A stretch of 64,000 nucleotides of DNA from Torpedo marmorata. Taxonomy: Eukaryota. Every line of letters begins with the position of its first letter. Within the stretch, counting starts at the first letter, position 1. Below, one piece after another: positions 22,460 to 30,600 of the stretch. The position numbers and the translations under genes were made by a program. The notes under the pieces are model-generated. The model saw only the letters and a list, made by a program, of their open reading frames with translations. It did no database searches and was not told where the DNA came from. Location of the stretch: assembly GCA_977017645.1 (NCBI GenBank), contig OZ360231.1, positions 50,344,001 to 50,408,000 on the forward strand, in the 5' to 3' direction.

Positions 22460-23660
22460 AGAAATTCGGTGTTTTGCGGCAGCATCATAGTGCAATTAAC
22501 ATTCATATTAACCGTCTAACGACATTACTATAAAAAAAATTATAAACAATAGTGCACGAAAAGTAAGGCAGTGTCTTTGGTTCATTGATTATTCAGGAAT
22601 CTGATGGCAGCGGGGAAGAAGCTGTCCTTGTGCCGTTGAGTGCTCGTCTTTAGGCTCCTGTACCTTTTTCCCGATGGAAGCAGAGTGAAGGGGGCATGGC
22701 CTGGGTGGTGGGGGTCTTTGAGGATAGAGGCTGCTTTTTTAAGACACCGCCTCATGTAGATGTCCTCGATGGAGTGAAGTTTGGTGCCTGTGATGTCACA
22801 GGCCGAGTTAACAACCTTCTGGAGTTTACTCTTGTCCTGGGAGTTGGCGCCTCCAACCAGGCAGTGATGCAACCAGCCAGAATGCTCTCCACGGTACACC
22901 TGTAGAAGTTTACGAGAGTCTTTGGTGACATACCGAATCTCTGCAGACACCTCACAAAGTATAGCCGCTGACAAGCCTTCTTTGTGATTGCATCAATGTG
23001 GATGCTCCAGGACAGATCCTCGGAGATGTTGACACCCAGGAATTTGAAGTTCTTGACCCTCTCCACGACTGAGCCCTCGATGAGGACTGGGTCGTGTTCC
23101 CCTGACTTCCTCCTGAAGTCCACAATCATCTCCTTGGTTTTGCTGACGTTGAGCTCAAGGTTGTTGCCATTACACCATTCAACGAGCTGATCTATCTCCC
23201 TCCTGTACGCTTCCTCATTGCCGTTTGTGATTCTGCCGACAACTGTGGTGTGATTGGCAAACTTGTAGATGGCATTGGAATTGTGCCTGGCCACACAGTC
23301 ATGGGTGTATAACGAGTAGAGCAGTGGACTAAGCACGCATCCTTGGGGTGCGCCTGTCTCTGTCTCTAGCTTCCTCCGGAATTGCCACTTTGCAAAGATG
23401 GCCTTCCGCAGGTCGTGCCTGGACTTTTTGTAAAGATCCCGGTCCCCGGCCTTAAACGCCCTTGTTCTCGTCCTCAGCAGATTGCGAATTCTCTGATTCA
23501 TCCAGGGCTTCTGGTTGGGGAACACCCGGTATTTGCGCCTGGGCACACACTCATCCACGCAGGTCTTGATGAAGTCGGTGACACCTGTTGCATATTCATT
23601 TAGGTCTATGGCTGAGTGCTTGAATATGTTCCAGTCCACCGATTCAAAGCAGTCCTGAAG
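22460..23660 (-). mobile_element. Rex1/Babar LINE, 3' half (split by BEL insertion)
   Basis: LQDCFESVDWNIF..FPNQKPWMN..TGAPQGCVLSPLLYSLYTHDC..YKFANHTTVVG..FKFLGVNISEDLSW..DPHHPGH. Confidence 0.9.
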
Positions 23661-23665
23661 ACGTT

Positions 23666-24296
23666 TGTAAGAGCCGTAGGCTCGTTTAACTTACCGTTGT
23701 TGCGGCGCTCCGATGTCTAGTCGGGCCTTGGAGCGCTCGCGTTGTTCACCAGGCCGTCCTCGGAGCGCTCCGAGGCCACGTCGGGCCTTGGAGCGCTTGA
23801 GTTGTTCTGTGGGCCGTCGTCGGCCCGTTCTTTGATATGCGCATGCGCGGGAGTGCCGACGGGCGCATGCGCAGTATGGAGTGACGTCATTGTGCGCGTG
23901 GGAGGCTGTGAGTTGTAGTATGCGTGGGGTAGGATGCGCAGAGCCATTAGAGAGAGAGAACAAAGAAAGGATAGAGATGTAGGAGGGTGAGTCTGGTCTC
24001 CACATCTTTATTGACCGTTTTATATCGTTTTATAATGTTTTTATAACTTTAACATCATCTACAGTGTTTCATATCGTTTTGGAATTGTTTAAGGAATAAT
24101 TTAAAGGAACTCATCATACATCGTTTACAAGAACTGTTTATATTAAAGTCATTGAAGATTACTGCAAGTCATGTGTGAAAATAAAGGTTTTGAACATATT
24201 GGACTTTGTTAGTAAATTAATTAAAATGCGTCAAAAGCAAGGACCACACTTAGCCTCCAGATGACTATTGGTGGAGCGAAGTCACCGTTACTTATA
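23666..24296 (+). repeat. 5' LTR of BEL/Pao element
   Basis: Matches 28991-29621 with about 5 substitutions by eye; contains aataaa. Confidence 0.95.
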
Positions 24297-24742
24297 GTCA
24301 ATAAAGGGCTGGCTGTTTGGAACAGAAGTTTGAAAGAAAGAAGATAGAAAAAACTCTCTGTGCTTTGGACTGATATAAATTGGTGGCCATTTTGGAGTTG
24401 CCTCGAGTTGGGGGCAGTTTGTAATCCACTTCCATCTGCCATGAATAACAGCCAGAGAGGGATTTAAAGCTTCAAATCTTATAATAAAGTGTCCTATAAA
24501 TACGTTGGAGAAACTATTTTTGGAAAATCAGTGATATTAGTGACGGATGTTGTGGTTGAAACTCGTTTAAGGATTGCAGCACATTACAGTCATTAGAAGT
24601 GGTAGGCATAAGTCTGTGGACTCCTTCTGTGTATCTTTAGCAAGTAAGAACACAGATTGGAATTGCTGCCGCTGGTCCATTGGGGACTGTTGTTTGACTA
24701 GTGTTGTGTATGCTTGAAGGAAAGAGGAACAAGACGAGTAAA

Positions 24743-27700
24743 ATGGCCGCAGCAGCCACTGATACAGCAGCTACTGATATATCAGCAGCTGACGCAGCAA
24801 CCGCTGATGTTGCTGTTGAGGACCAACGTATTGAAGACATGAAGGTTTCAGATATTAAAGAAGAATTGAAGCGACTGAAAAAGGACATAAGTGGAAATAA
24901 AAAGGTTCTTATTGAAAGATTGAAGCAGGCAAAGGATGAAGAGGCAGCTTCATTAGTGGAACAAGAAGATAACTTGGAAATGGCTGAAATTGTGTCAACA
25001 AATGATGAACAATTTGAATTGGATAAAGAGGTAAGTATGAAGACAACATATGAACTGCAGGACGAAATACAAGCAAGTGACAGTGTCTCAAATGCTGAAA
25101 GCAGGAGAAGCAAAAGAAGTTCTGGTTCGAGCTCCAGAGTTTCTCGTATTTCAAGTTCTACATCGTCACGTACAAAGATTGAAGTTGACTTGGCCGCTCT
25201 TCTTGCACAACAAAAAACGCTTAAGGATAAATTTATATTAGAACAAGAAGAGGAACAACTAAGACAAAAGGAGGAGCAGCTAAGACAAAATGAGGAGCAG
25301 CTAAGACAAAATGAGGAGCAGCTAAAGGAGCAGCTAAGACAAGAGGAGGAGCAGCTAAAGGAGCAGCTAAGACAAAAGGAGGAGCAGCTAAGACAAGAGA
25401 AGGAGCAGCTAAGGCAGAGAAAAGAACTGCAGGAGCTGGAAGCAAACATTGCTATTGCCAAGGCAAAAAAGAAAGCAACAGAAGGCTCAATGGTATCTGG
25501 TGCTAGCAGTAAATTATCTAAATTATCTGATAATAAAAGGTCATATTTAAAAAAGGAGTCACAGGAAAAGAAACCAACCAAAAGGATAGATATTTTAGAA
25601 CCAAGGATACAAAACTTACATATACAAGGTCAAACCTTTCAAGAGCATTTTGGTATCGAGTCACATGTACCAATGGTAACATCTGAAAGCAAAGCTGCGG
25701 CTTGGGTCCGATCGAACGAAGTAAATTCTTTGTTATATAAGCCAAGCATCAGAAATATGGAAAAAACTACACCAGTAAGGTTTCCAGATACATTGCATAC
25801 AACACGAGACAGTGAACAGAGCAATGTATTGTCATCCAAGGAAAGACAAAATGAAATTGCTGCATCATTGTTTCAGTTACAGTCTCTCTCTTCTTTACCC
25901 AAGAAAGAGATACAAACTTTTGATGGTGATCCACTTCAATATCAATCATTTATGAGATCTTTCAAACGCAACATTGAAGATAAATGCCAAGATCGTGATG
26001 AATGTCTTTATTATTTGGAAATGTTTACAAAGGGACATCCAAAAGAACTGGTTAAAAGTTGTAAACAAATGTCTTCAGGAAGAGGATTAGACAAAGCTAA
26101 GGATTTATTGGAACAATATTTTGGCAACAAACATCGAATTGCTTTAGCTTATATGGATAAAGCTCTTAAATGGACATCAATAAAACAAAATGATGTAAAG
26201 GCTCTGCAAGAGTTTACTCTGTTTTTAAGAGGATGTTGTAATGCTATGGAAGAAATCGATAATATTCGTGAACTTGAAGTGCATAGTAATATGCGAATCA
26301 TCTTAGAAAAATTACCTTACAAGTTATGGGATAGATGGAGAGATTTGGCTTGTGATTTACAAGTAGATTACCGTCGAAAAACTACCTTAAAGGATTTGGT
26401 AAATTTTCTTGAACGACGGGTGTACGTTGAAACAGATCCACTATATGGAAATGCCAGAGATAATTCAATGGGCAAAGATGTAATGAAGTCTAACACACAG
26501 TCTAGTCCGAAAGTGAAAAGGAGTACATTTGCTACTAATGTGCAAGTTATAAGTAAAGAAAATGACAAAGTAAATAAGGAAAAGGAAAGTTTGCCTAGTG
26601 AAAAGAGTTGTTTGTTCTGTAAAGGTGGACATGCTTTGGAAATGTGTTTACGATTGGAAAAGAAGGAACATAAGGAAAAGATCGCTTTCTTAAAAGAAAA
26701 TGGAATATGCTTTAGCTGTCTGTGTAAAGGGCACATCAGTAAAAACTGCGAGAAGCGAATTAATTGTAACATATGCAATTTGAAACATCCTAGAATTTTG
26801 CATATCCATAACAGAAACAAGGATTTGGAAAAGGAGCAAACAGAAACAAAGGAAACAACAGAAAATAATGTTATAACCTCGGTTCAGACAAGTGGTCTTA
26901 CTGGGGCCGGGGTGAATAACTGCAAACTTTCAATAGTACCTGTACAAGTCAAGGCCAAGAAAGGGGATGCAATAGTAAAAACATATGCATTTCTAGACCC
27001 AGGCAGCACTGCATCTTTTTGCACGGAAGGACTAATGAATAAACTTAATATTCAAGGAAAAAGATCAAGAATTATGTTAAAAACCATGGGACAAGAAAAG
27101 GTTGTTGAAACTAACATTGTTTCAGGCTTAGAGGTTGCTGGATTGGATGACAAAAAATTTTGTGATCTTCCAAGTGTATATACTCAGAAGACTATGCCTG
27201 TCAATGAAGGAAATATTCCTCATCAAAGGGATATTCATCATTTAGCTTATCTGTGGAAGGTTTATTTACCTGAAATTAATTCTGAAATAGAAATGCTGAT
27301 TGGTTCAGATGTGCCAAAGGTTTTGGTACCAAAAGAAGTAATAGAAAGTAAAAGGAATGGACCTTACGCTATCAGAACCATGCTTGGTTGGGCAATCAAT
27401 GGACCAATGGAAAGAAATAATGATTTTGCTCAGGAACAGGTAGCGATAAATATTAATAAAATTTCGGTTGAGAAAGTTGAAGAGTTAAGCGAAGAGCAAA
27501 AAACCGTGAATAAGAAAATCACTTTTGAAGAAAAGAAAACAGATCAATGTGAAAATAAATCAATGGTATTTAAAACAACATTGAAGGAATTAATTTCATC
27601 AGAAATGGATGAAAGTGAAGTATTAGAAGATATTGCAAATAATACTATTGATCATTCATGTGTAATTGAATCAGATACAGGAATAAAACAAGTGACTGAA

Positions 27701-28567
27701 AACAAATCTGAATGTAGATTTTGTAGTTCAGAGATTACAACAGACAAAGCTAATGAAGAAATATTACAATGTGATGTAAAACTGGAAAACACAGAAAATT
27801 GTGCTGATAGAATAAAGAATAATGTGAATGATAATTTAATGCAATTGAATCCAGAAAACAAAATGTTGAAAGGGGAATTGGAAATATTAGATAATCAAGA
27901 AAACAGTAAACAGAAAGATTTAATTGTAAGTAAAACTCGCAAAGTCAGAAAGCGGAAGAAAAGAATAACTGCTGAAGAAATGAATACAGTTATCGAAGAA
28001 AGAGATTCAGCATTATCAAAATGTAAAAGGTTGGAGGAAGAGATTAATGTTTTAAAAGAGAACAAGTTATTGGTTAATAACACAAAACAGTTGACTTTAA
28101 AAACCAATCAAGAATGTAAATTGAATGTTCAACAATTAACAATGCAGAAAGAATGTGATATTGCATTGCAGAAATGTAACAAACAAGATGAAGAAATTAA
28201 AAAATTTCAAGTTTGTCGCGACAGGATTGACAATAGAAATATCAATGTACCATATGATATTTTGACTTCAGATCAAATTATTAATTTCTCGGAAGGAGCT
28301 GAGACTGAATTGAAAGTTGCAAAATTGGATTTAGAATTGCAGGAAAGAGCCATAGAAACCAGAGTGGTTAAACAGACCTGTTTAAAATCGAAAGAATCAG
28401 ATAAATATTCAAATTCTAATTCTAAGAGTTTAAATTCTTCACATGAGAAGTGGAATACTGAAGAAAGGAATAAAGTGAAACGACATGCTGAAGAAGTGCC
28501 TCATGTTAAATTCAAAAGGAAAACTGTATCTATTTTGTCTGAAGAAAATTTGAGGTTTACTGATTGA
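24743..28567 (+). CDS. BEL/Pao SAP-Gag-protease polyprotein fused to MIPOL1-like coiled coil
   Basis: Uninterrupted ORF of about 1274 aa from aaaATGG. SAP-like MKVSDIKEELKRLKKDISGNKKVLIERLKQA; DUF1759-type FDGDPLQYQSFMRSF; CLFCKGGHALEMC / CFSCLCKGHISKNC / CNICNLKHPRILH; protease AFLDPGSTASF...LGWAING; then RITAEEMNTVIEERDSALSKCKRLEEE. Confidence 0.9.
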   Translation: MAAAATDTAATDISAADAATADVAVEDQRIEDMKVSDIKEELKRLKKDISGNKKVLIERLKQAKDEEAASLVEQEDNLEMAEIVSTNDEQFELDKEVSMKTTYELQDEIQASDSVSNAESRRSKRSSGSSSRVSRISSSTSSRTKIEVDLAALLAQQKTLKDKFILEQEEEQLRQKEEQLRQNEEQLRQNEEQLKEQLRQEEEQLKEQLRQKEEQLRQEKEQLRQRKELQELEANIAIAKAKKKATEGSMVSGASSKLSKLSDNKRSYLKKESQEKKPTKRIDILEPRIQNLHIQGQTFQEHFGIESHVPMVTSESKAAAWVRSNEVNSLLYKPSIRNMEKTTPVRFPDTLHTTRDSEQSNVLSSKERQNEIAASLFQLQSLSSLPKKEIQTFDGDPLQYQSFMRSFKRNIEDKCQDRDECLYYLEMFTKGHPKELVKSCKQMSSGRGLDKAKDLLEQYFGNKHRIALAYMDKALKWTSIKQNDVKALQEFTLFLRGCCNAMEEIDNIRELEVHSNMRIILEKLPYKLWDRWRDLACDLQVDYRRKTTLKDLVNFLERRVYVETDPLYGNARDNSMGKDVMKSNTQSSPKVKRSTFATNVQVISKENDKVNKEKESLPSEKSCLFCKGGHALEMCLRLEKKEHKEKIAFLKENGICFSCLCKGHISKNCEKRINCNICNLKHPRILHIHNRNKDLEKEQTETKETTENNVITSVQTSGLTGAGVNNCKLSIVPVQVKAKKGDAIVKTYAFLDPGSTASFCTEGLMNKLNIQGKRSRIMLKTMGQEKVVETNIVSGLEVAGLDDKKFCDLPSVYTQKTMPVNEGNIPHQRDIHHLAYLWKVYLPEINSEIEMLIGSDVPKVLVPKEVIESKRNGPYAIRTMLGWAINGPMERNNDFAQEQVAININKISVEKVEELSEEQKTVNKKITFEEKKTDQCENKSMVFKTTLKELISSEMDESEVLEDIANNTIDHSCVIESDTGIKQVTENKSECRFCSSEITTDKANEEILQCDVKLENTENCADRIKNNVNDNLMQLNPENKMLKGELEILDNQENSKQKDLIVSKTRKVRKRKKRITAEEMNTVIEERDSALSKCKRLEEEINVLKENKLLVNNTKQLTLKTNQECKLNVQQLTMQKECDIALQKCNKQDEEIKKFQVCRDRIDNRNINVPYDILTSDQIINFSEGAETELKVAKLDLELQERAIETRVVKQTCLKSKESDKYSNSNSKSLNSSHEKWNTEERNKVKRHAEEVPHVKFKRKTVSILSEENLRFTD
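25245..25420 (+). repeat. Coding tandem repeat (EEQLRQ/EEQLKEQLRQ)n in Gag N-terminal coiled coil
   Basis: Repeated gaggagcagctaagacaa units of 21 and 33 nt, all in frame. Confidence 0.9.
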
Positions 28568-28604
28568 CATTTTAACTCAGATTTGAAGATAAAAGAACTT
28601 TAAA

Positions 28605-28785
28605 GAGACATTATGATTATTATGGATAATTCAACTTCAAGAAATTCCTGGTTACTTGGAAAAGATTATTGAGACTTTTCAAGACAAAGAGGACTTGTGC
28701 GTCAAGTGCGAATTAAAACTAAGACTGGTTTTCTAAACAGACCTATTAATAAGGTCTGCCTTTTGTTGGAGACAGAGGAACTTTG
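28605..28785 (+). pseudogene. Remnant of BEL integrase C-terminal segment (DUF5641-like)
   Basis: With frameshifts it reads DIMIIMDNSTSRNSWLLGK/IIETFQDK/GLVRQVRIKTKTGFLNRPINKVCLLLE, the typical end of BEL pol. Confidence 0.8.
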
Positions 28786-28990
28786 ATAAATGTGATCTGA
28801 CTTTATTTGTTGTTGTATATTTCACAGGTTACAGACTTTTGTTGAATCAGAGTTATGGTAAACTCTAGATTTATGAAGAAGGAAGAAAGAAGATTTGTAT
28901 TGTTTTGAATATTATGGTTATTGTTATTTATAATTTATAGTGTAATTATTATTCAAGACATTACGTCTAATTATAATAATTAGGGGCCGG

Positions 28991-29621
28991 TGTAAGAGCC
29001 GTAGGCTCATTTAACTTACCGTTGTTGCGGCGCTCCGATGTCTAGTCGGGCCTTGGAGCGCTCGCGTTGTTCACCAGGCCGTCCTCGGAGCGCTCCGAGG
29101 CCACGTCGGGCCTTGGAGCGCTTGCGTTGTTCTGTGGGCCGTCGTCGGCCCGTTCTTTGATATGCGCATGCGCGGGAGTGCCGACGGGCGCATGCGCAGT
29201 ATGGAGTGACGTCATTGTGCGCGTGGGAGGCTGGGAGTTGTAGTATGCGTGGGGTAGGATGCGCAGAGCCATTAGAGAGAGAGAACAAAGAAAGGATAGA
29301 GATGTAGGAGGGTGAGTCTGGTCTCCACATCTTTATTGACCGTTTTATATCGTTTTATAATGTTTTTATAACTTTAACATCATCTACAGTGTTTCATATC
29401 GTTTTGGAATTGTTTAAGGAATAATTTAAAGGAACTCATCATACATCGTTTACAAGAACTGTTTATATTAAAGTCATTGAAGATTACTGCAAGTCATGTG
29501 TGAAAATAAAGGTTTTGAACATATTGGACTTTGTTAGTAAATTAATTAAAACGCGTCAAAAGCAAGGACCACACTTAGCCTCCAGGTGACTATTGGTGGA
29601 GCGAAGTCACCGTTACTTATA
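28991..29621 (+). repeat. 3' LTR of BEL/Pao element
   Basis: Direct repeat of 23666-24296, preceded by ggggccgg. Confidence 0.95.
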
Positions 29622-29626
29622 ACGTT

Positions 29627-30600
29627 CCTCCGCCTCCCTCGACCATACTTTAGCCGTCCTCACCACTGGTGCTGTGGTTTTCAGTCTCTGCTTGTACGCT
29701 GGGAGTAGAAGTACAGCCAGGTGATCAGACTTGCTGAAGTACGGTCGTGGTATGGCTCGGTTTGTGTTCTTCACGGTGGTGTAGCAGTGGTCGAGTGTGT
29801 TGGTTCCCTTGGTCTCACAAGTGATGTGTTGGTGGTAGTTTGTCAGTGACTTCTTCAGATTGACCTGATTGAAGTCTCCCACAATGATCGGGAAGGCATC
29901 AGGATGTGCTGTCTCATGGCTGTTTATCACAGTGCTCAGTCCCTCCAGTGCCAGCCTGACGTTAGCCTGGGGCGGAATGTACACTGCGACCAGGATGATG
30001 GCGGTGAACTCCCTCGGCAGATAGAATGGGCGACACTTGATTGCCAGATGTTCCAGGTCGGGGGAGCAGGACTGGGACATGACCGTCATGTCTGTGCACC
30101 ACGATGAATTGATGATGACACACACGCCGCCTCCCCTGGTTTTTCCAGACGCCGGTGTTCGGTCAGCGCGATGGAGGGTGTAGCCCTTGGGCTATAGCGC
30201 CGTGTCCGGAATGTCCTCGTTTAGCCACGTTTCTGTAAAGCACATCACGCAGCACTCCCTGATGACTCTCTGATGTTGAAGTCTGGCATGGAGTTCATCA
30301 AGTTTGTTCTCCAAGGATTGTACGTTGGCCAGGAGGATAGTAGGGAGCGGAAGCTTCAGGTCCCCGTGTCTCAGCTTGACTTGTAGCCCCCCTCTGCGTC
30401 CACGTGGTCGGGGCTTCTTTACCTGGCCCGTGGGTCCACTGCCGGTAGGTCCCACAGTGTTTAAACGGTCTGTGCGCTGTCCCTTTAAATCCTGCGCGAT
30501 TTGTAAGTGTGCTGAGCGCCTGCTGTCTGTGACTCCCGCGAAGTTTAAATGGCCCGTTCTCTGGCTGTTTAAATGTCCTGCGGTGTTGCTGCTGTACTTA
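29627..30600 (-). mobile_element. Rex1/Babar LINE, 5' half with APE endonuclease
   Basis: RGRRGGLQVKL..LPTILLANVQSLENKLDEL..CFTETWL..VYIPP..GDFNQ..TLDHCY..SDH..WSREAEER, which joins LQDCFESVDW across the BEL insertion. Confidence 0.9.

Follow-up and report, generated by a model that had tools for sequence, protein, structure and literature searches.

A BEL/Pao retrotransposon family of Torpedo marmorata with spliced BRCA1, MIPOL1 and Elongin A pieces in place of pol and a MIPOL1 exon order pointing to a probable circular RNA template

A 64,000-nucleotide stretch of the Torpedo marmorata genome (GenBank assembly GCA_977017645.1, contig OZ360231.1, positions 50,344,001 to 50,408,000 of the forward strand; hereafter the window) contains a 5,956-bp BEL/Pao long terminal repeat (LTR) retrotransposon at 23666-29621 that has gag and protease, lacks pol, and carries host-derived coding sequence (the cargo) where pol would be. 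We consider it probable that this is a non-autonomous element whose pol was replaced in frame, through template switching, by pieces of the host genes BRCA1, MIPOL1 and Elongin A, that the MIPOL1 piece was copied from a circular RNA (circRNA), and that the cargo persists as filler which keeps the reading frame open. Directly observed are the exon content with its exact junctions and permuted order, the number of copies, and a cargo whose frame is open while its amino acids drift near-neutrally.

The initial annotation of this locus, made from the sequence alone, had proposed that a spliced segment of MIPOL1 replaces pol in frame with gag-protease, and this was confirmed by exon-level DNA matches and by the open reading frame (ORF). 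A protein search with the cargo region gave 34 matches at E<=0.001 among 495 candidates, every one of the 34 with the Pfam pair PF27918/PF27921; the best was the MIPOL1 protein of a ray, Narcine (67% identity, E 3.8e-29), and the top ESM Atlas matches concurred. Generic coiled-coil similarity was ruled out by the same exon-level matches. The peptide quoted initially is present in the window, and the interval first given for it (27930..28215) does lie within MIPOL1 sequence, the full extent of which is 27916-28375.

Host MIPOL1 is located on G000:C40, where each exon was found once and in normal order within the 340 kb tiled, with exons ~200 kb apart. Host exons C and H each have one match in the genome, the short exons are 86-96% identical to the Narcine protein, and exons A-G are bounded by AG/GT and total 780 nt, a whole number of codons. 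When the genome was searched with ray MIPOL1, matches came in pairs, residues 437-553 followed directly by residues 295-385, and at the DNA level the cargo order is E-F-G then A-B-C, with the end of exon G joined to the start of the earlier exon A (G|A). The alignment is thus not colinear, as had been supposed, since its second half comes from earlier exons. In the older subfamily of the element, the piece opens with the 3' 124 nt of E, continues through F, G, A and B and ends ~18 nt into C; it is 93-98% identical in DNA to the host exons. The E|F, F|G, A|B and B|C joints are ordinary splice junctions, exact in the older copies, which bears out the expectation that the segment would span exon junctions. 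At G|A, the last base before the exon G donor is joined to the first base after the exon A acceptor. This offset was zero in 79 of 80 loci, and because many of those loci had been selected by sequence spanning the junction, we examined 20 more picked by an 18-mer of exon E away from it, of which 19 had an offset of zero and one had a deletion. The corresponding joint in the window is mutated yet in register.

Exons X, H and D and the remainder of exon C had no match in 201 non-host loci, and this assembly holds no duplication of host MIPOL1 that would give the E-G/A-C order. The piece therefore has the properties by which a circRNA retrocopy is recognised, an exact reversed exon-exon junction and nothing from beyond the circularised exons. 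Because G|A falls at exact back-splice borders and the piece contains nothing beyond the 780-nt circle, a circRNA is most likely the template of the MIPOL1 piece, and a simple linear mRNA, as assumed in the initial annotation, does not account for exons permuted at an exact back-splice junction. The host exon F (G000:C40:64463599-64463492) has one codon that is absent from the Narcine protein and from the captured copy alike, and host exon B carries host-only changes; the capture is therefore likely to predate these changes. Four copies of the element sit in introns of host MIPOL1 itself (G000:C40:64340000-64496000). At G000:C42:9563886-9564965 an internal 405-bp tandem repeat of the cargo places several G|A junctions in one copy; the absence of exons C and D makes a secondary duplication a more probable cause than additional laps of the circle.

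MIPOL1 is not the sole captured gene, as had been thought, for it is flanked by pieces of BRCA1 and Elongin A, and all three host genes were located in this genome (BRCA1 on G000:C61, Elongin A on G000:C41). The piece 5' of MIPOL1 matched skate BRCA1 (66%, E 6.9e-57), and a search with it gave four matches among 1.84 billion proteins, the top three being BRCA1 clusters by name. The window version is 47% identical in amino acids to residues 196-350 of skate BRCA1 (E 1e-33) and 71% and 78% identical in DNA to two host exons. For Elongin A, the domain PF06881 was recognised in an older copy (L101; E 6.7e-16) with ray Elongin A as the top match, and the window piece is 80% and 82% identical in DNA to host exons. 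In older copies BRCA1 is represented by four exon pieces and Elongin A by five, all of them spliced, in linear order within each gene and mostly at 90-98% DNA identity to host exons, so that a spliced, partial host RNA has replaced the internal ORF between the two LTRs, as in LTR-mediated retrocopies. The founder cargo was ~2 kb in length, and all three host pieces lie in sense orientation, each in its native frame. The BRCA1 piece has neither a RING nor a BRCT domain, and PF06881 is gone from the window ORF. A few copies (L177 on G000:C1027 and matches on C2005 and C2476) contain only the Elongin A part and the 3' end of the older element, and these are possibly a separate amplified derivative.

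The features of the window element are given in Table 1. In a Pfam search the 1285-aa ORF matched only SAP, DUF1759 (BEL gag, E 2.7e-6) and, weakly, an aspartyl protease (E 0.18), and zinc-knuckle Cys-His motifs are visible. As first reported, the ORF has no reverse transcriptase (RT), RNase H or integrase by Pfam and no YxDD motif; the window element also has no env ORF. The remnant of DUF5641 was marginally short of the curated Pfam cut-off (E 1.3e-4). Assignment to BEL/Pao is based on the LTR pair with its 5-bp target-site duplication (TSD), on a DUF1759 gag with zinc knuckles and protease in one ORF, and on close kin that carry a Pao pol (RT, PF05380, integrase, DUF5641); as the element has no RT, RNase H or integrase of its own, we file it as a non-autonomous derivative. 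Its LTRs end in TG...TA rather than the usual TG...CA (24296, 29621), as do those of the anchored young copies. Within gag, a tandem repeat of 21/12-nt units (25230-25438) codes for a Glu/Gln-rich coiled-coil run. ORF lengths differ among copies of the family.

Table 1. Features of the BEL/Pao element and its flanks, in window coordinates.
Feature	Position	Strand	Basis or remark
5' target-site duplication ACGTT	23661..23665	+	same letters as 29622-29626
5' LTR, 631 bp, ends TG...TA	23666..24296	+	626/631 identical to 3' LTR
Single ORF, 1285 aa (1274 aa if ATG 24743)	24710..28567	+	SAP, gag, zinc knuckles, protease, host-derived cargo
BEL/Pao gag-protease	24710..27498	+	SAP residues 41-74, DUF1759 residues 404-545, protease near residues 757-812
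BRCA1-derived piece, remains of two host exons	27495..27923	+	protein and DNA matches to BRCA1
MIPOL1 exons E (3' part), F and G, spliced	27916..28221	+	82-88% identical in DNA to the host gene (G000:C40)
Back-splice-type joint of MIPOL1 exon G (end) with the earlier exon A (start)	28221..28222	+	host exon borders
5' 74 nt of MIPOL1 exon A and 3' part of exon B, 81-nt in-frame deletion between	28222..28375	+	
Elongin A-derived piece, remains of two host exons; contains ORF stop 28565-28567	28366..28579	+	
BEL integrase C-terminus remnant (DUF5641), 3' of ORF stop, frameshifted	28605..28790	+	89-94% identical to pol-bearing relatives
Purine-rich tract before 3' LTR, likely polypurine tract	28980..28990	+	seen in 19/20 young copies
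3' LTR, 631 bp	28991..29621	+	paired with 5' LTR
3' target-site duplication ACGTT	29622..29626	+	matches 5' copy

Relatives that retain pol were sought with an integrase search of the genome, which gave 98 scored matches, ten of which were examined at length. Three of the ten proved to be full-length and to carry pol; their LTR pairs are 97-98% identical, and their gag-protease has ~90% DNA identity to that of the window element. A relative at this level of gag-protease identity contains PF05380 (E 4.9e-47) and DUF5641. Nine of the ten match the window element up to just before the first switch point and then run on into pol, and none matches the cargo, which rules out descent of the cargo from autonomous BEL elements. 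Measured against the older subfamily, synonymous divergence is 0.85 in gag, 0.50 in protease and 0.27 in the cargo, and the young 3' end is nearer to the pol-bearing relatives; this pattern would fit repeated exchange of sequence with helpers. Just upstream of one older copy is a different LTR element (L108:5292-9266, minus strand) that contains RT, RNase H and integrase, its 260-bp repeats being 100% identical.

The family is abundant, and a count of copies, suggested with the first description of the locus, ran to thousands by exact k-mer matches. An 18-mer of the exon E cargo had 17,415 exact matches genome-wide, the host exon included, a 24-mer across the host-like junction had 164, and a 21-mer across the window junction had 2,413, while the reversed control of each had none. 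If most matches are near full length, the family would amount to ~100 Mb, or 1.7% of the 6.2-Gb genome. At G000:C1:1498301-1518174, five marker matches at a constant spacing of 4,964 bp suggest that copies of the element are arrayed in tandem. All 150 scored genome matches of the window peptide were 100% identical. Among 20 window-type copies, LTR pairs were resolved in 17, with a median identity of 99.7%, and 14 of those 17 had an exact TSD. Plausible LTR pairs were found in 11 of 30 older loci and were 78-94% identical. The junction sequences grade from host-like into window-like, and LTR identity is higher at the window-like end. Movement of the element after the capture, which had been read from the LTRs and TSD of the single copy, is thus upheld by many thousands of copies, and it has continued as a non-autonomous element in the manner of LTR-mediated retrocopies.

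Relatedness within the family was examined with a tree of the E-F-G protein segment (26 rows, seven of them host). All 19 element rows grouped with ray MIPOL1 to the exclusion of the six other hosts (100/99). The 12 rows of mid and young copies made up a single group (100/100), which sits on a long branch amid the older copies. A grouping of all seven host rows together was not rejected by the approximately unbiased test (p-AU 0.08), and the direction of transfer therefore rests on the introns and splice junctions and not on the tree. In other sequencing runs, contigs of three spanned the whole cargo region (30/30 bins) and those of one more spanned 24/30, and one run showed a host-like junction variant; the family thus probably extends beyond this sample. 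Since it is a guess whether these runs are RNA, their contigs count neither for nor against transcription.

To the extent that the cargo is under selection, it looks to be the open frame and not MIPOL1 function that is selected. Codon-by-codon counts between older and window-type copies gave ratios of nonsynonymous to synonymous substitution (dN/dS) of 0.31 (0.19-0.49) for gag, 0.28 (0.19-0.41) for the zinc knuckles and protease, and 0.72 (0.49-1.11) for the cargo, against a neutral baseline, from private decay in old copies, of 0.52-0.93 in well-sampled regions. The MIPOL1 part compared with host exons gave 0.93. Changes are chiefly G>A, C>T and C>A, and neutral simulation with the same spectrum predicted 11.5 stops in the 331 cargo codons with a probability of 0.0001 of none; the window has none. 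The whole cargo is open in 18 of 20 window-type copies, and among the 20 loci picked by the exon E 18-mer, 12 are open for at least 184 codons downstream of exon E and five for more than 1,000 codons upstream. The six modal length changes from older copies to the window (285, 24, 120, 81, 201 and 111 nt) are all multiples of 3, the 24-nt change being found in 6 of 17 copies and an alternative in-frame value (-63) in eight. The founder junctions were likewise in frame, with values of 63 nt in 10 of 22 copies (57 in one, not found in 11), 36 nt in 21 of 22 and 45 nt in 19 of 22.

Given these patterns, a functional cargo protein is unlikely to explain the family, although it would start from the same circRNA capture, with the MIPOL1 coiled coil and the acidic BRCA1 stretch serving the particle or host partners in the way of a retroviral oncogene. 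The sense orientation and native frames of the three pieces, the open cargo of the window-type copies and the fact that E-F-G is never deleted in the window lineage, where the ratio of nonsynonymous to synonymous polymorphism (pN/pS) among young variants is 0.51, would all be expected of such a protein; the cargo dN/dS, however, overlaps the neutral baseline and that of MIPOL1 against the host approaches one, the Elongin A domain has been lost, the BRCA1 piece has no RING or BRCT, and the MIPOL1 piece is permuted and partial. Acutely transforming retroviruses make gag-onc fusions in which pol is replaced by host coding sequence and replication depends on a helper, and the window element resembles them in that host sequence lies in frame with gag and pol is lost. 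Its host pieces are near-neutrally drifting fragments (dN/dS 0.72-0.93), unlike the selected active domain of those viruses. The likeness to oncogene capture drawn in the initial annotation implies a selected host protein, and it is weak, since the frame rather than MIPOL1 function looks selected; the dN/dS calculation proposed there for the captured part came out near neutral.

Our proposal for how the element arose is as follows. Host RNAs would have been co-packaged with an element RNA in a germ-line particle, where the reverse transcriptase, leaving the element near the integrase end, would have copied part of an Elongin A RNA and then entered the MIPOL1 circle ~18 nt into exon C. Exons B and A would have been copied next, the back-splice junction crossed into G, F and E after a total of ~590 of 780 nt, less than one lap, and part of a BRCA1 RNA copied before the enzyme returned to the element just before RT. 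Capture in a single round would be indistinguishable from capture in several. Short overlaps can be seen by eye at the switch points, the best of ~6 nt at MIPOL1-Elongin A, where by the same reading the 6-nt overlap is followed by 8 extra nt that bring Elongin A into frame. The product would make its own Gag-protease and borrow RT and integrase in trans from pol-bearing relatives, with which gag-protease, 3' end and LTRs would since have been exchanged. Later subfamilies lost ~820 nt of the cargo region, always in frame. Translation that ends near a natural stop allows an RNA to escape nonsense-mediated decay. The least supported step is why stops are purged; we favour the view that translation to near the natural pol stop may keep the element RNA stable by this means, or allow it to be packaged.

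Several observations weigh against this proposal. The MIPOL1 circle was itself not observed, and among recorded sequencing runs none from RNA was listed as containing the stretch; for the circ-Mipol1 reported in mouse (PMC9888537) the available text gives no exon coordinates to compare. In a linear mRNA the end of G and the start of A share ~3 nt (AG plus C), and a template jump between these borders is possible, if only unlikely. The microsimilarity at the switch points is a reading by eye and may be due to chance. The three full-length pol-bearing relatives are all broken, and their LTRs are only 74-83% like those of the window element over most of their length. Finally, young cargo variants have pN/pS of 0.33-0.82 (small counts), so that weak protein constraint is possible.

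A linear source for the permuted MIPOL1 piece appears distinctly unlikely. An ancestral tandem duplication of exons A-G, trans-splicing of two pre-mRNAs, or a chance RT jump to exon borders could each yield the G|A joint, and the shared nucleotides at the borders and the purely genomic record of the circle leave room for these routes. Against them, the host exons are single in the tiled region and exons C and H are single in the genome, the 201 non-host loci hold nothing from outside A-G, and the captured length is less than one lap of the circle. A chance hit on the borders has a probability of ~1 in 1,000, jumps from an exon end to the start of an earlier exon being 28 of the 28,985 possible backward jumps with a shared 3-mer. 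It is very improbable that the cargo is kept as camouflage, an idea from maize gene-capture work in which host-like sequence shields an element from small-RNA silencing or makes silencing costly to host genes, for although the family is very abundant and the three genes are presumably transcribed in the germ line, the commonest subfamilies are the most diverged from the host (71-88% identity) and have lost the most cargo, host-like copies are few by junction count even against the window form alone, and the purging of stop codons would be left unexplained. Returning to the circRNA capture, we rate the chances as about even that a host circRNA was packaged and reverse-transcribed in an LTR-element particle, stitched between BRCA1 and Elongin A fragments and made a permanent, translated component of what is among this genome's most abundant mobile families, and that translation of the cargo was needed for the success of the family.

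Capture of host mRNAs by LTR elements, Pao included, and circRNA-derived pseudogenes have each been published already. Dong et al. 2016 (PMC4897178) defined circRNA-derived pseudogenes by a reversed exon-exon junction and, in the portions available, called the mechanism mysterious, describing 33 high-confidence mouse circRFWD2 copies that lack a poly(A) tail and whose flanks are enriched for LTR sequence. The window element shares with these the reversed junction without poly(A). Their link to LTRs, as far as that text goes, is enrichment in flanks. In the present family, by contrast, a complete LTR element with TSDs encloses the junction, which has RNA captured from another gene on either side, is in frame with gag-protease and has spread to thousands of copies.

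Tan et al. 2016 (PMC5131818), in the accessible main text, reported a two-gene capture by the fly Pao element BATUMI, a capture by mosquito BEL18_AG, and LTR-mediated retrocopies in zebrafish, chicken, mouse and human, among them a four-gene 'Super' retrocopy in mouse. The initial statement that no such case had been described therefore holds only narrowly, the Pao and BEL captures having been published there. Like the window element, these retrocopies have ORFs replaced by partial spliced host RNA, from several genes and in sense, and were re-mobilised non-autonomously. The cases in that text are polymorphic or recently originated, in contrast to successive subfamilies at the marker counts given above with one frame kept open through ~20% divergence, and the word 'circ' is absent from it. 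The same text describes maize Bs1, an LTR element with partial exons of three unlinked host genes and switch points common to all of its one to five copies, both of which recall the window element. One of the three Bs1 pieces is out of frame and no back-splice junction is mentioned for it there, whereas ours is a vertebrate BEL/Pao element with all three in frame.

We found no description of the present family in the literature, Repbase, Dfam and most subscription journals being outside the search, and no report of a circRNA origin and LTR capture in one element, or at such scale. The union of the two in one element, its scale and the frame-only constraint appear to be new. A search with the whole ORF gave one match among 4,576 candidates, a bird MIPOL1-like protein, and hence no annotated chimeric protein elsewhere, which does not in itself show absence. 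A recent preprint (bioRxiv 10.64898/2026.06.26.734816) places MIPOL1 among the genes with the most retrocopies in cartilaginous fishes. In the text available MIPOL1 is named a single time, as part of a model that invokes germ-line expression and selective retention, and no LTR carrier, exon permutation, BRCA1 or Elongin A is mentioned there. The excess of MIPOL1 retrocopies in these fishes is plausibly the family described here. SUDS3, SDF2L1, SLU7 and ZNF276 stand beside MIPOL1 in section 6 of that preprint as top retrocopied genes, and they may be the cargo of other mobile families.

These results may have several implications. How circRNAs without poly(A) return to genomes was left open in the available text of PMC4897178, and a back-splice junction inside a complete LTR element points to an answer. 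It predicts that circRNAs are co-packaged in LTR-element particles and that other permuted retrocopies will be found inside LTR elements. If true, the packaging of circRNA would provide a direct mechanism for circRNA retroposition, and the element would preserve one particular germ-line circRNA as a dated fossil. Host coding fragments that are retained for their open frame although their residues drift would also offer a natural test of translation-dependent RNA stability in retrotransposons. In practical terms, gene annotation, retrocopy counts and read mapping can all be expected to suffer from the thousands of fragments that resemble BRCA1, MIPOL1 and Elongin A.

Elsewhere in the window, the element is surrounded by an older minus-strand fragment that we take, by resemblance, to be from a long interspersed nuclear element, with an RT-like part at 22752-23501 and an endonuclease-like part at 29613-30089. 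Farther downstream, at 32300-61000 on the minus strand, at least nine dispersed units of ~190 nt are 61-73% identical to each other, with an open frame in the four that were translated, and look like tandemly repeated exons of a host gene.

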